DNA of 64,000 nucleotides, taken from NCBI GenBank assembly GCA_013334765.1, contig JAAXWW010000001.1:236589-300588 (forward strand), read 5' to 3'. This document shows, piece after piece, positions 12,405 to 61,739 of the stretch. The notes beneath the pieces were generated by a model, which saw only the letters and a list, made by a program, of their open reading frames with translations, was not told the DNA's origin and did no database searches. Within the stretch, counting starts at the first letter, position 1; every line of letters begins with the position of its first letter. Made by a program: the position numbers and the translations under genes. The stretch is from Candidatus Moraniibacteriota bacterium. Lineage in GTDB: Bacteria > Patescibacteriota > Minisyncoccia > Moranbacterales > UBA2206.

Positions 12405-13049
12405 TTAGGATAGTGACGGTACTCTTACTGCGTATTTGTGAAGGTTTTTCAGTTGCGCCGCGTTGAGATTCTTTGATTTTGAAATCGCATCTCCTATGAG
12501 GCTCTTGGAAAATTCTACCGAGCTTCCGATGTTCACCTTTCCAGTTCCGACATTCTTCCTCATGTAATCTTCGATGTATATCTTGTGTTCGGCCGTCAGG
12601 GTCGAATCAGGATTCTTTTCCAGATAATCAGCTAGGGCTCTTCTGGCAAGCTTGGTCGTTCCATCGCCTTTTCCGGCTGTTTCTATGAACGAGCTGTCGG
12701 TTTCCTTGCTTGTTCCGGCGGCAACGCTGCTAGCAACGCTGTTCTTCTGCTGGACGGCCTGATCTTTGGATTGGCTGTCAGCCCGTGCCTGGTTGTCCGA
12801 TGTTGAAGCGTCGGAGTCTCCTGATATGGCTTCGCTCAGAACGTCATTCTTGGCGGCTGATTCGTCATTCGCAGGAGCCATCGATCTGTTCGAATAGGAA
12901 TAGATTCCTCCAGCGATAAGGACTACGATGATTATGCTCACGATGATTCTCAGGTTGTCCTGAAACCATTGCTTCATGCTTGCTGGCTCAGCCTGTTCGG
13001 TCTCGTTTTTCTCAGTCGTTTCTTCGTTTGTTTCTTGGTCAAATTCCAT
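12405..13049 (-). CDS. hypothetical membrane-anchored protein (214 aa), Ser/Ala/Asp-rich linker
   Basis: Strong Shine-Dalgarno (AAGGAAGGTG) 6 nt upstream of the ATG; single N-terminal TM. Confidence 0.5.
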   Translation of the reverse strand: MEFDQETNEETTEKNETEQAEPASMKQWFQDNLRIIVSIIIVVLIAGGIYSYSNRSMAPANDESAAKNDVLSEAISGDSDASTSDNQARADSQSKDQAVQQKNSVASSVAAGTSKETDSSFIETAGKGDGTTKLARRALADYLEKNPDSTLTAEHKIYIEDYMRKNVGTGKVNIGSSVEFSKSLIGDAISKSKNLNAAQLKNLHKYAVRVPSLS

Positions 13050-42299: not shown

Positions 42300-43094
42300 A
42301 TGGAAGCCTTGATTGCTGATAAGAAGCGGATTCGTTGTATCAACTACAGATATCCAAGAGGATATGCGGTCAAACCTGTCAGCGAACAGGTCAGGACCCT
42401 GCTGGCTGATTTCGGGTCAATCGGGCTGAGTCTTGATGTCCCGGAGCTAGCCCAGCAAAAAAAAGAGACAACTTTTTCCCCTCGGAACGCCGAAGGGATG
42501 TTTGTTTTCCCATGGTGGAAATGCCTGGCTGGTTCATATCTTGGAGCAGTCAGTGCGGCTGTTTCTTTGCTTGAGCGGAAAATAGATACTGATATCGACA
42601 TCGGATTATTGTCTGCCATAAGGAGATCCAGACATACGGAACAAGCGCTATCGATAATCTCCGAAAAACAATCAAGTAATACGTTGGTTATTCCAGCTCA
42701 GCTTGGTTATTTTTTCCAGAATATCGGAGTGAAGGCGTCGGATGAGTCATTCCTGAATGAAGCCGATTCGTATAGCGGCAAGCTGATCTATCCGGATATG
42801 TTCGGGCTGGGAGTGTTCGAAGTTCTGATGATTCTTCTGACTCATCCGGAAAGATTGCTTGGTCAAGGAGGCAATACCGGGTGCGATTCTGATGTTGTCG
42901 AGAAGAGCCTAGCTATCGATTGCCCTGCTGACAACTGCATCGATGAGATCGATTGGAGGAAAGGACGCGAAGTCGTGAGATCGTCACCGTATTTTTTTTC
43001 TGATTATGGGGACAGTATTTCGCTAGGGTTGTGGCCGCATTATCTATCCAACATCTCTTCCGGTATTGCTACGGGATTCTTTCCAAGATCATGA
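42300..43094 (+). CDS. hypothetical protein (264 aa)
   Basis: AAGGAAGG Shine-Dalgarno 5 nt upstream; no recognisable domain. Confidence 0.5.
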   Translation: MEALIADKKRIRCINYRYPRGYAVKPVSEQVRTLLADFGSIGLSLDVPELAQQKKETTFSPRNAEGMFVFPWWKCLAGSYLGAVSAAVSLLERKIDTDIDIGLLSAIRRSRHTEQALSIISEKQSSNTLVIPAQLGYFFQNIGVKASDESFLNEADSYSGKLIYPDMFGLGVFEVLMILLTHPERLLGQGGNTGCDSDVVEKSLAIDCPADNCIDEIDWRKGREVVRSSPYFFSDYGDSISLGLWPHYLSNISSGIATGFFPRS

Positions 43095-46767: not shown

Positions 46768-46777
46768 TTTTCCAGTG

Positions 46778-46850
46778 AGCCGCCTGTCGGAATCGAACCG
46801 ACGACCTACGCGTTACGAGTGCGTCGCTCTGCCAACTGAGCTAAGGCGGC
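46778..46850 (-). tRNA. tRNA-Thr (anticodon CGU)
   Basis: RC reads GCCGCCTTAGCTCAGTTGGCAGAGCGACGCACTCGTAACGCGTAGGTCGTCGGTTCGATTCCGACAGGCGGCT, a cloverleaf with anticodon loop CTCGTAA. Confidence 0.8.
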
Positions 46851-46851
46851 T

Positions 46852-46927
46852 GACTACGCCGAGGCTTCGTCAGCCAAAGGCCGACTATGCCGAGGCTTCG
46901 TCAGCCAAAGGCCGACTATGCCGAGGT
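46852..46927. repeat. 31-bp tandem repeat x2.45 abutting tRNA-Thr 5' end
   Basis: gactacgccgaggcttcgtcagccaaaggcc / gactatgccgaggcttcgtcagccaaaggcc / gactatgccgaggt. Confidence 0.85.
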
Positions 46928-46985
46928 TTCTTTGCTTGGGCATGACCTAGACATGATATAATAAGTCTTAAAATAATTCAAATCC

Positions 46986-47516: not shown

Positions 47517-47670
47517 GGAAAGAGAGTGATGATATTTCAAATGACTGACTCGAGCATCGCATTTTTTATTCAAAAATATTCCCTCGCTCGACGGCATCCG
47601 GTGGAATATTTTTGAAAAAATACGTGCTCTCAAACAGGTGAGTCGTTTGAAATATCATCACTCTCTTTCC
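47517..47670 (-). repeat. family-2 palindromic intergenic element, copy 2 (inverted relative to copy 1)
   Basis: The core is the reverse complement of the 26449-26515 core; different arms (ggaaagagagtgatgatatttcaaa...) that pair with each other. Confidence 0.85.
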
Positions 47671-47707
47671 TTGAGATAAGAGTAAAGCTTTAACAAAAGC
47701 TATAACA

Positions 47708-48786
47708 TATGGAAGATAAAATCATAGAATTGAAGAATAAGATCCTGCTTTTGCGGGACTATCTTTGACGTTGCGGGAAAGGAAAACAGGATCCTGGAGC
47801 TGGAGGCTGAATCGAATCGGGAGGGGTTCTGGGATGACCATCAGAAGGCTTCTTCGGTCATGCAGGAACTGGAAGAGATCAGGAAAGAGATAAGGATCCT
47901 TTTGGAAAGCGAAAAGGAAATAGCCGATATTTCGGAATTCTTGGAAATGGCGGAGAGCGAAGAGGAAAAGGATGAGATAGGGAACAAGGTTGCGGAACTT
48001 GAAAAGAACCTGGCCGAGCTGGAATTCAAGACCCTTTTCGACGGGGAATATGACAGCAATCCGGCAATCGTTTCGATATATTGCGGCGCCGGCGGGGTGG
48101 ATGCGCAGGACTGGTCGGAAATGATCCTCAGGATGTATCTCAGGTGGGCGGAAAAGAACGGTTTTCGGGCCAAGCTTCTGGATGAGACCCGCGGGCAGGA
48201 GGCCGGGATCAAGAACGCCACGATAGAATTCACCGGCCCCTATGCTTATGGATATTTGAAAAGCGAATCGGGCGTGCATCGCCTGGTGCGCCTTTCGCCT
48301 TTCAACTCGGACAATCTGAGGCAGACTTCCTTTGCCATGGTCGAGGTCCTGCCTGTTATCGATATGATAAGCGAAGTGGAGATCAAACCGGATGATCTTA
48401 GGGTGGATGTTTTCCGTTCGCAAGGGGCTGGCGGTCAGGGCGTCAATACGACGGATAGCGCGGTGAGGATCCTGCATATCCCGACTGGAATCATGGTCAC
48501 TTGCCAGAACGAGAGGAGCCAGATGCAGAACAGGGAACAGGCGATGAAGATCCTGAAAGCCAAGCTGCACAAGAAATACCTGGAAGAAAAAGAAGCGGAA
48601 AAAAACAAACTGCGGGGCGAGCAGGTGAGTGCCGAATGGGGAAGCCAGATACGGTCATATGTGGTTCATCCGTATAAAATGGTGAAGGATCACCGCACTA
48701 AGCATGAAACTGCGGATGTCGAAAGCGTTTTCGACGGGAACATCAACGGTTTCATGGAAAGCTATTTGGAGGGTTTGAAAAAATAG
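47708..48786 (+). CDS. prfB: peptide chain release factor 2 (programmed +1 frameshift; apparent extra 1-nt frame disruption)
   Basis: N-terminal MEDKIIELKNKILLLRDYL then CTT TGA C at 47762-47768. The +1 frame gives DVAGKENRILELEAESNR and stops at 47835; the main ORF (47860-48786, SPF motif, GGQ in QGAGGQGVNTT) is in the next frame. The junction is in the G-run 47817-47826. Confidence 0.8.
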
Positions 48787-48835
48787 TTTATAATATGTTC
48801 ATGTCGGATAATTTCATTATTCTAAGCTTCTCATT

Positions 48836-49519
48836 ATGATCAAATTCGATTCGGTATCGAAAATATATAAAGACGATTATGTGGCTCTCGACAATGTGAC
48901 CTTCGAAATAAAGGAAGGCGATTTCGTTTCTATTGTCGGGGCGAGCGGGGCTGGCAAATCGACCCTGCTCAAGCTCATATATGCCGAGGAGTCCCCGACT
49001 TCCGGGACGGTATATTTCAACGGCGGACCGCTTGAGGGAATGAGCCGGAGGAAAGTGCCGTTCCATAGGAGGAATATCGGGACTGTTTTCCAGGATTTCA
49101 AGCTCTTGCCGAAAAAGACGGCTTTCGAGAATATCGCCTATGCTCTGGAAGTGTCCGGCGCGCCGACGGAAGAGATCATGGAATATGTCCCTCAGATTTT
49201 CGAAATAGTCGGACTGTCCGACAAGGTGAACAAGTTTCCGCATGAACTGTCCGGAGGAGAACAGCAGAAAATAGCTCTTGCCCGCGCCCTTATCAACAAG
49301 CCGCTCGTTATCATAGCGGATGAGCCGACGGGAAACCTCGATCCTGTTTCTTCGGTTGAAATAATGCAGCTGCTGCTCAAGATCAACAAGCTCGGAACGA
49401 CAGTCGTTTTGGCGACGCATGACAAGGAAATAGTGAACAAGGCGACAAGGCGAGTCATCGTCCTTGAAAAGGGGAAAGTGATCTGCGACGAAGAAAAAGG
49501 CAAATACAAGATCTGTTAA
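48836..49519 (+). CDS. ftsE: cell-division ABC ATPase FtsE
   Basis: Walker A GASGAGKSTL, LSGGEQQKIALARAL; followed by ftsX. Confidence 0.9.
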   Translation: MIKFDSVSKIYKDDYVALDNVTFEIKEGDFVSIVGASGAGKSTLLKLIYAEESPTSGTVYFNGGPLEGMSRRKVPFHRRNIGTVFQDFKLLPKKTAFENIAYALEVSGAPTEEIMEYVPQIFEIVGLSDKVNKFPHELSGGEQQKIALARALINKPLVIIADEPTGNLDPVSSVEIMQLLLKINKLGTTVVLATHDKEIVNKATRRVIVLEKGKVICDEEKGKYKIC

Positions 49520-49532
49520 AATAAAAAAAACT

Positions 49533-50441
49533 ATGTTTCTAATCATTGGGAGAACAATCAAAGAGGCTTCTAGGAATTTCATCAGGAACGGCTGGCTTAC
49601 GGTTGCTGCGGTGAGCGTCATGATCATGTCGCTTTTCATCATCAGCGTCCTCTATACTGTGACTATGACTGCCAGCGGGATATTGAAAGGCGTTGAGAAT
49701 AAAGTCAATGTGAGTGTGTATTTCAAGCCGGACACAACCGAGAACGATATCCAGAAAATCAAATCGGATCTGGAAAAATATAACGAGATAAAGTCCGTCG
49801 AATATGTCTCGAAAGACAAGGCCCTTGCCGATTTCAAGGCCAATAATGTCAACGAGCCGAGGATCCTGGACGCGCTCAACGAGATCGGGGATAACCCGCT
49901 GCCGTCCTCGCTTGTCATCCAGGCCAATAGCCCCTCCCAATACGATTCGATAGTCACCTATCTCGGCGACGCCTCCTTCAAGGACGAGATAAGCCATATA
50001 AACTACGGCAAGACGAAGGATGTCATCAACAGGCTGAACAATATCATTTCCGAAATAAAGAATGCCGGCCTGTATATCTCGCTTCTTTTCGCGGCTATTT
50101 CCGTGCTTATCATCTTCAACACGGTGAGGATCACCATCTATACCCATAAGCAGGAAGTGGAAGTGATGCGCCTGGTCGGGGCATCCAACATGTTCATCCG
50201 CCTGCCGTTCGTTTTCGAAGGGATCTTCTATGGGATCGTGGCTTCGGTGGTTTCGATGGGGCTCCTTTTCGCGGCGCTCAAGTTCGCTTCCCCATATGTG
50301 ACCAAGATAATCCCGACTGAAGACCTGGTTTCTTTCTATATAAGCAACTTCCTTCTTCTTCTCGGCACCCAGCTTGCGATCGGCGCGGTGATCGGGATCC
50401 TCTCGAGTTTGATCGCGATCAGGAAATATCTGAAGGTGTAG
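49533..50441 (+). CDS. ftsX: cell-division permease-like protein FtsX
   Basis: FtsX topology (TM, large periplasmic loop, 3 C-terminal TM). Confidence 0.85.
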   Translation: MFLIIGRTIKEASRNFIRNGWLTVAAVSVMIMSLFIISVLYTVTMTASGILKGVENKVNVSVYFKPDTTENDIQKIKSDLEKYNEIKSVEYVSKDKALADFKANNVNEPRILDALNEIGDNPLPSSLVIQANSPSQYDSIVTYLGDASFKDEISHINYGKTKDVINRLNNIISEIKNAGLYISLLFAAISVLIIFNTVRITIYTHKQEVEVMRLVGASNMFIRLPFVFEGIFYGIVASVVSMGLLFAALKFASPYVTKIIPTEDLVSFYISNFLLLLGTQLAIGAVIGILSSLIAIRKYLKV

Positions 50442-50541: not shown

Positions 50542-50613
50542 TGGGGAATAGCCAAGCGGTAAGGCAGTAGGTTCTGGTCCTACCATGCGGGGGTTCGAAT
50601 CCCTCTTCCCCAA
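50542..50613 (+). tRNA. tRNA-Gln (anticodon CUG)
   Basis: TGGGGAATAGCCAAGCGGTAAGGCAGTAGGTTCTGGTCCTACCATGCGGGGGTTCGAATCCCTCTTCCCCA closely parallels E. coli tRNA-Gln; anticodon loop TTCTGGT. Confidence 0.85.
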
Positions 50614-50619
50614 CATCCC

Positions 50620-58729: not shown

Positions 58730-59296
58730 CTAGATTTTTCCGGCGAAGAGAGCATAGAGCCTCTCTGATATTTCATACACAGTGAAAGCGATGGCGTTAC
58801 TGGTCCACCATCGGTCCGATAGTGGATCATACCCTATTTCGGAGGTGTCCGGGATGATAACATAAAGGCCGAGTTTTTTAGCCGCCAGGGCATATAGGCG
58901 AGCATCCCTGGGGTGAGCGATTATTGCTACGACGCATCCGGGTTTTTTTTCTTCCGAAAGAAAGACCAGCCTTCGGTAAATCATTTTAAAGATATCGAAT
59001 ATTTCTCCGCCTGCATGAGTTTTTTGCACGTCTGTTATTTTGCTTGTGGGACTTACGCATAAAAAATCAGCAATCTCTTTGGGAATCACCAAATGGGGCA
59101 CGCGACAGGATAGGAGAATTTCACGGATAATTTCTGCCATCCTGTTGTTGCTGCCAATCGGACAGTTGCACTGATGGAACCCGAAGGGCACCACTAAAAG
59201 AGTTTCGACATTTTTGAAGCTTAATTTCCAGATGGTTTTAGTTTCCCAGCAAAAGAAACACCAGAACAGCTTTCTGATAAAAGCGAATAACTTCAT
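58730..59296 (-). CDS. DUF218 (YdcF/SanA/ElyC-like) membrane protein
   Basis: ATG at 59296 preceded by GGAGG 5 nt upstream; N-terminal TM then a DUF218-like core. The track ORF starts at TTG 59335. Confidence 0.55.
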   Translation of the reverse strand: MKLFAFIRKLFWCFFCWETKTIWKLSFKNVETLLVVPFGFHQCNCPIGSNNRMAEIIREILLSCRVPHLVIPKEIADFLCVSPTSKITDVQKTHAGGEIFDIFKMIYRRLVFLSEEKKPGCVVAIIAHPRDARLYALAAKKLGLYVIIPDTSEIGYDPLSDRWWTSNAIAFTVYEISERLYALFAGKI

Positions 59297-61544: not shown

Positions 61545-61617
61545 GCGCCCATAGCTCAGTTGGTAGAGCAGTTGCCTTTTAAGCAAACGGTCCCAGGTTC
61601 GAGTCCCGGTGGGCGCA
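61545..61617 (+). tRNA. tRNA-Lys (anticodon UUU)
   Basis: GCGCCCATAGCTCAGTTGGTAGAGCAGTTGCCTTTTAAGCAAACGGTCCCAGGTTCGAGTCCCGGTGGGCGCA closely parallels E. coli tRNA-Lys; anticodon loop CTTTTAA. Confidence 0.85.
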
Positions 61618-61739
61618 CACAACACATAATATGGAACGGATTCCCGAGAGGGGATTTTTTGTTTGACCTCGAAAGGGGAATATGCTAATTTAGTGTATCG
61701 TAGCTTAACAACAAAATAGCGGTTATCGGGAGGTGCTTT

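Follow-up and report, generated by a model that had tools for sequence, protein, structure and literature searches.

An intact, frameshift-dependent prfB in a Moranbacteria-like genome, with a covarying hairpin that probably stands in for the Shine-Dalgarno-like stimulator

According to published descriptions, the frameshift cassette of prfB, the gene for release factor 2 (RF2), varies remarkably little, and its stimulator is a conserved Shine-Dalgarno sequence, in the standard form a Shine-Dalgarno-like AGGGGG 3 nt upstream of CTT (PMC5009743; 10.1101/2024.09.24.614795). At short spacing, the Shine-Dalgarno:anti-Shine-Dalgarno helix promotes the +1 shift at CUU UGA, according to references cited in PMC6321510. 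Sites without the element have been reported, for example in Winogradskyella psychrotolerans and in clades of Planctomycetota, Firmicutes_A/B and Cyanobacteria (Naeem et al. 2024, PMC10798248). That study describes loss of the element only, with neither a replacement structure nor Patescibacteria mentioned; what replaces the lost stimulator, if anything, is not stated. The hairpin described here could interest those who study recoding. Where prfB has become in-frame elsewhere, the stimulator and the slippery sequence are both reported lost (10.1101/2024.09.24.614795).

Duplexes within the mRNA itself have been studied as stimulators in engineered constructs. A synthetic hairpin upstream of CUUUGA gave about 60% of the +1 stimulation of a Shine-Dalgarno sequence in an RF2-free E. 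coli system, and this effect depended on stability, a 12-bp hairpin being active and a destabilized mutant weak (PMC6321510). The effect of such hairpins declines with distance, as measured for the attenuation of −1 frameshifting (PMC3639245). Our literature search found no natural prfB hairpin and nothing on prfB of Patescibacteria; a prior report may nevertheless exist.

Layout of prfB and its shift site

The window, i.e., the whole 64-kb stretch of DNA that was analyzed, comes from a Moranbacteria-like (Patescibacteria) genome and carries an ordinary, intact prfB whose shift site is the canonical UAU CUU UGA C. The closest genomes are metagenome-assembled genomes of Candidatus Moranbacteria/Moraniibacteriota and Paceibacteria (best tblastn segment identity, 56-68%). 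A rubrerythrin-like gene lies upstream of prfB and ftsE-ftsX downstream, an order common to the relatives, and the gene itself is laid out as follows.

47709-47768, + strand: prfB ORF1 in frame 0, 19 codons (MEDKIIELKNKILLLRDYL) and the in-frame TGA
47759-47762, + strand: spacer, C followed by TAT (47760-47762), the E-site codon also found in the E. coli cassette
47763-47769, + strand: shift site CTT TGA C, with the slippery CTT_T, the RF2-specific stop and the weak-termination context C
47767-48786, + strand: prfB body in the +1 frame, 339 stop-free codons and TAG (48784-48786)
48295-48303, + strand: SPF stop-codon recognition tripeptide, residue 196 of the joined protein
48430-48438, + strand: GGQ catalytic motif, residue 241 of the joined protein

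As in a programmed +1 cassette, ORF1 runs to the in-frame UGA and the body is open from the codon overlapping it, with CUU_U, UGA and then C in succession at 47763-47769. From GAC at 47767 the +1 frame reads DVAGKENRILELEAESNREGFWDDHQKASSVMQELEE..., and ORF1 joined to this body gives an RF2 of 358 amino acids. The joined product scored 483.1 bits against TIGR00020 (prfB; cutoff, 370) over profile positions 3 to 352 of 353, harbors PCRF (PF03462) and RF-1 (PF00472) domains, and reached 243 to 248 bits with RF1 models, under their cutoffs. Its best matches among solved structures were RF2 chains (E = 3e-103), the first of which, 9fy1_8, aligned without gaps through the region disputed by an earlier note on this DNA. 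CTTTGA is present in register in 139 of 161 related sequences, and the spacer reads CNNT in nearly all relatives. Furthermore, TGA terminates 9 of the 48 long ORFs in the window, which indicates that UGA is a stop codon here and that RF2 is needed. The RF2 score, the +1 frame, the use of UGA as a stop and the conserved CTTTGA together identify an ordinary, intact, frameshift-dependent prfB, in which frameshifting itself would follow from the intact and conserved cassette. The earlier note had named the gene as prfB and had seen the short ORF1 ending in TAT CTT TGA before a C, the canonical CTT TGA C shift site and an RF2 body downstream, all of which are present. Taken as a whole, we consider it likely that the locus is explained by an intact frameshifting prfB, a G that the earlier note introduced and a hairpin that putatively substitutes for the Shine-Dalgarno helix.

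Several neighboring features were recorded alongside. The intergenic region between the rubrerythrin gene and prfB (47517-47670) forms one long, near-perfect palindrome with outer arms of 33 nt (94% complementary) and nested 18-nt arms inside; its RNA fold was calculated at −86.3 kcal/mol (z = −12.5), and the arms were found only there within the window. In the relative L162 (93% identical), the spacer is unrelated and carries another inverted repeat, of 14 nt; L164 has only about 45 nt, free of any such repeat, between the rubrerythrin gene and the start of prfB ORF1. The palindrome looks like a lineage-specific hairpin insertion, either a MITE-like element or a long bidirectional terminator. 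Many antisense "shadow" ORFs occur across the window, including those opposite prfB and ftsE; those tested matched no family, and they most probably arise as artifacts of codon usage. The spurious ORF at 46775-46945 is explained by the tRNA-Thr gene.

46777-46850, − strand: tRNA-Thr(CGU)
47722-48570, − strand: antisense ORF of 282 amino acids, opposite prfB
48788-49642, − strand: antisense ORF of 284 amino acids, opposite ftsE
50542-50614, + strand: tRNA-Gln(CUG)
61545-61618, + strand: tRNA-Lys(UUU)

The element missing from the cassette is the Shine-Dalgarno-like AGGGGG/GGAGG 3 nt upstream of CUU, where the window reads GCGGGAC TAT. The best anti-Shine-Dalgarno pairing at the site was −4.0 kcal/mol, versus −10.7 kcal/mol at the E. 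coli site, computed with GAUCACCUCCUUA, which may differ from the 16S tail of the host lineage itself; no rRNA was found within the 64-kb window. Upstream of the starts of the 48 long ORFs, called roughly by first ATG, no Shine-Dalgarno enrichment was observed: mean pairing to ACCUCCUUU was −2.2 kcal/mol upstream of starts versus −3.4 kcal/mol inside genes, A/T-rich sequence precedes the start codons, and a strong GGAGG-like motif precedes only about five genes (e.g., the ORFs at 12405-13049, 42300-43094 and 58730-59296). Such a pattern suggests that initiation is largely Shine-Dalgarno independent, as in Bacteroidia.

The hairpin upstream of the shift site

Immediately upstream of the spacer, the sequence can fold into a short hairpin at −20 to −5 relative to the C of CTT.

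47743-47758, + strand: RNA hairpin of 6 bp with a 4-nt loop
47743-47748, + strand: 5' arm, TCCTGC
47749-47752, + strand: loop, TTTT
47753-47758, + strand: 3' arm, GCGGGA (−10 to −5)

Four nucleotides separate the hairpin from CUU, which places its end one base upstream of the usual Shine-Dalgarno-like position, and a 34-nt fold containing the stem was calculated at −10.3 kcal/mol (z = −3.5). The same architecture was found in the same register in 27 distinct sequences from Patescibacteria relatives, with about 15 different stems, among them TCCCGA/TCGGGA, TCGCTC/GAGCGA, TCGTCC/GGACGA, TTGCTT/AAGCGA and TCCTTC/GAAGGA. The residues encoded over the hairpin vary widely (ILLLRD, LPNLRD, IALLSD, IVQLDD, ILQAKD and others). 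In an ungapped alignment of these 27 relatives (A1), 87.0% of the cells were paired, compared to 64.0 ± 2.7% after shuffling (0/500), and the covariation score was 0.545, compared to 0.159 (0/500). Double changes occur at four of the six stem pairs, and sliding the 3' partner by 1 to 3 columns left only 26 to 59% of the cells paired. The class was picked by GAC at −6 to −4, which fixes just the 3' side of the two outer pairs and not the covarying inner pairs. It was defined after the pattern had been seen and its members are mutually related, points that a held-out set and the slide control answer in part.

The held-out set comprised seven loci outside our model of the hairpin, R1 (L161-L164 and L170-L172), which scored 41 to 46 bits at their shift sites and folded in the same register; L161 and L162 repeat the 33-mer of the window, whereas the other five are distinct and new, one of them with the new stem TCCCGG/CCGGGA. 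A search of about 745 kb of related loci with R1 hit prfB shift sites and nothing else. In a control with 84 Chloroflexi-type sites, which have GGTG/GGAG upstream, the candidate helix CGCATC...GGTGCG was 69.0% paired versus 68.4% after shuffling, showed no covariation and was rejected; such sites appear to depend on GGTG/GGAG in its place. No Rfam family was assigned to the window's shift site or its surroundings, with only tRNAs at the gathering threshold and noise at E ≤ 10. The distance from hairpin to CUU is fixed at 4 nt, but the start codon lies at differing distances, 34 nt away in the window and 46 nt away in L170. The two outer pairs and the following C (GGA-C) are invariant, so a residual sequence-specific role is possible. 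From this pattern it is very likely that the hairpin is a selected RNA structure.

A second candidate pairing, between 47741-47751 and 47783-47793 (11 nt, 91%, −12.1 kcal/mol), would span the shift site, in competition with the 5' arm of the hairpin. It is not conserved in relatives and is probably due to chance.

Expression of prfB would follow the classical autoregulatory +1 frameshift. Ribosomes that have read the 19 codons of ORF1 would pause with the RF2-specific UGA-C in the A site and CUU in the P site; with RF2 scarce, the peptidyl-tRNA-Leu would slip from CUU to UUU, and reading would resume at GAC 47767 to give the 358-aa RF2. In this paused state, the 3' arm of the hairpin (−10 to −5) would sit one base upstream of the strand normally formed by the Shine-Dalgarno sequence (−9 to −4), so that we infer that a cis stem could refold in the platform cleft and provide a duplex of similar stability. 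Refolding behind the paused ribosome, the hairpin would take the place of the Shine-Dalgarno:anti-Shine-Dalgarno helix and push the ribosome toward +1. Median energies are compatible in size: the hairpin class has −8.4 kcal/mol for the hairpin and −4.0 kcal/mol for anti-Shine-Dalgarno pairing, against −2.2 and −5.2 kcal/mol at the other sites, and the hairpin median is of the same order as the E. coli Shine-Dalgarno duplex (−10.7 kcal/mol).

In five other sequences, from other Patescibacteria and related metagenomes (L099, L041, L098, L015 and L127), the Shine-Dalgarno-like GGAGG preceding CTT TGA pairs with a CCUCC-like stretch farther upstream and forms the 3' arm of a hairpin. Such a hairpin, e.g., GCCTCC ctcg GGAGGC, is a cis copy of the Shine-Dalgarno:anti-Shine-Dalgarno helix. 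These hairpins look like intermediates and would suggest that the helix was internalized step by step. The hairpin of the window is probably a cis-duplex substitute for the Shine-Dalgarno:anti-Shine-Dalgarno helix, as judged from its position and predicted stability. On frameshift stimulation as its actual role our judgment is evenly balanced, since the natural stem has 6 bp against 12 bp in the active synthetic hairpin and five of six close relatives with an in-frame prfB have kept it. The broader proposal, that a clade of Patescibacteria with little Shine-Dalgarno use replaced the trans helix by a cis hairpin of similar stability at nearly the same position, is tentative and seems to us to fall slightly short of an even chance.

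Alternative readings of the hairpin and of the gene

About 45 of the best 120 protein matches are full length with in-frame N termini. DNA was covered for six such relatives (L083 and L165-L169). Their in-frame state arose via single-base deletions, such as loss of the C after the stem, which gives GGGA TATTTTTAAC. Autoregulation of prfB has been lost repeatedly in this clade through deletion of single nucleotides in or beside the shift site, the in-frame types being RDIFN, KSQEIGKIL, IEAVF and RDYLD. Frameshifting and in-frame genes thus occur side by side, which makes the clade suitable for studying the loss of autoregulation. Five of the six in-frame relatives, which have no UGA, keep the hairpin (L165, L166, L167, L169 and L083), and in one in-frame clade (IEAVF, L168) it is gone. 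Its retention means either that these losses are recent and the hairpin has not yet decayed or that it does something besides stimulating the shift.

The second possibility, that the hairpin is selected mainly for a function other than frameshift stimulation, is the strongest alternative, and we regard it as unlikely. It could be a terminator-like attenuator early in prfB or serve some other mRNA-level function common to frameshifting and in-frame genes. A loose consensus scan does flag 47743-47758 followed by CTATCTTTGA as terminator-like (tail, CUAUCUUUGA), and the in-frame relatives combine the hairpin with better T-runs (GGGA TATTTTTAAC, GGGA AAATTTTAAAT and GGGC CGTTTTTAAT). In the frameshifting genes, however, the U-tract is poor (CNNUCUUUGA) and spacers such as CCGU or CUGG occur, and the loss of 1 nt together with two substitutions in an ancestral UAUCUUUGAC accounts for the in-frame T-runs. 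A function shared with in-frame genes would fit L165 and L166, which have the same in-frame lesion and differ by compensation at the innermost pair (G-C versus A-T). Against any such function stand the spacing, fixed relative to CUU and variable relative to the start codon, and the absence of the hairpin from the in-frame IEAVF clade.

It is very improbable that the hairpin is a functionless product of chance or of coding constraint. It does lie inside the coding region, and conserved codons for Ile/Leu and Asp supply its outer pairs; yet the residues vary while double changes keep the pairing, none of the 500 shuffles matched it, slid registers failed and the held-out sequences conformed.

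The remaining two readings concern the gene rather than the hairpin. The earlier note had placed an extra G in a 10-nt run at 47817-47826, which would put the RF2 body in the wrong frame and imply either a homopolymer error in the assembly or a disrupted prfB, i.e., a pseudogene or a gene in need of a second shift. The following features are at issue.

47818-47826, + strand: disputed run, CGG GAG GGG (R-E-G), 9 nt, in frame, with no extra G
47835-47837, + strand: out-of-frame TGA that had been taken for a stop

Read from the window, 47817-47829 is tCGGGAGGGGttc (= TCGGGAGGGGTTC), with the 9-nt run CGGGAGGGG at 47818-47826; the string given by the earlier note, CGGGGAGGGG, has no match in the 64-kb window. 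The TGA at 47835-47837 exists as described and lies in frame 2 relative to the prfB body, which is open for 339 codons from 47767 through 48786 and scores as a full-length RF2 above the cutoff. Adding one G after 47820 yields DVAGKENRILELEAESNRGGVLG*, exactly the translation "...ESNRGGVLG*" reported earlier. A single phantom base in that transcript also explains its coordinates, which are low by one ahead of the run and accurate beyond it: the start codon is an ATG, at 47709-47711 rather than 47708, and TAT CTT TGA is found at 47760-47768 rather than 47759-47767.

Comparison with other sequences gave the same result. On the separately assembled Logan contig L161, which may share the source reads of the window, the product of a 308-aa ORF is 100% identical and the DNA agrees base for base over 47690-47880. 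Three relatives that are independent of the window assembly, L162, L164 and L163 (93%, 85% and 82% protein identity), pass through the G-run without an indel (AATCAAGAGGGATTC, AATCAACAAGGTTTC and AACAAGGAAGGCTTC, respectively). The idea of an inserted base stems from the earlier transcript, the sequence itself offers nothing in its favor, and as an explanation it is refuted, with practically no probability left to it. The "extra G" is a transcription slip involving neither a second shift nor an assembly error, and we are nearly certain that prfB is intact and the G a phantom. The earlier note had itself allowed that its G-run might be mistranscribed and the +1 frame continuous, and both are the case; its finding was a reading error over an ordinary gene and has no significance in the form in which it was put forward.

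UGA is reassigned in some relatives within Patescibacteria (Gracilibacteria and Absconditabacteria), and the earlier note had raised reassignment or under-use of UGA; on this reading the in-frame TGA would simply be a sense codon. To our knowledge, those UGA-reassigning lineages have no RF2. Here an intact RF2 with SPF is encoded, UGA ends 9 of the 48 long ORFs and the body lies in the +1 frame instead of the frame of ORF1, which leaves this reading a negligible chance.

Comparison with known systems

The gene is of a kind already known, the reported anomaly is not real, and the architecture of the putative stimulator is probably a new variation on a known theme. If the proposed role is true, the hairpin would be to nature what the synthetic "refolding hairpin" stimulators are to the laboratory, would provide a natural test of whether a duplex of any kind at the mRNA exit of the ribosome can drive +1 shifting, and would show how translation signals change in lineages in which Shine-Dalgarno recognition has largely been given up.

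With the E. coli-type cassette (AGGGGG UAU CUU UGA C), the window shares ORF1, UAU, CUU_U, UGA-C and a body in the +1 frame, whereas its ORF1 has 19 codons instead of 25 and AGGGGG is absent, a covarying cis hairpin lying within one base of its position. Many close relatives resemble the in-frame prfB genes known from elsewhere, while the gene in the window keeps UGA and needs the shift; in-frame prfB elsewhere loses the stimulator, in contrast to the five of six close in-frame relatives that keep the hairpin. As at the sites described by Naeem et al. (PMC10798248), the shift site is retained and the Shine-Dalgarno-like stimulator has degenerated, and the host, like Bacteroidia, makes little use of Shine-Dalgarno sequences for initiation. 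Unlike at those sites, a structured element fills the vacated position in the window.

The closest likeness in structure is to the synthetic refolding hairpins of the Chang laboratory (Cho et al. 2013, PMC3639245; Huang et al. 2018, PMC6321510), which likewise place a stable duplex immediately 5' of CUUUGA. Those hairpins are engineered, 12 bp long and GC rich, whereas the one described here is natural, comprises 6 bp of about −9 to −11 kcal/mol and is predicted from sequence. The compensatory changes found in nature are consistent with stem-dependent +1 shifting of the kind seen with the synthetic constructs, and are not proof of it.
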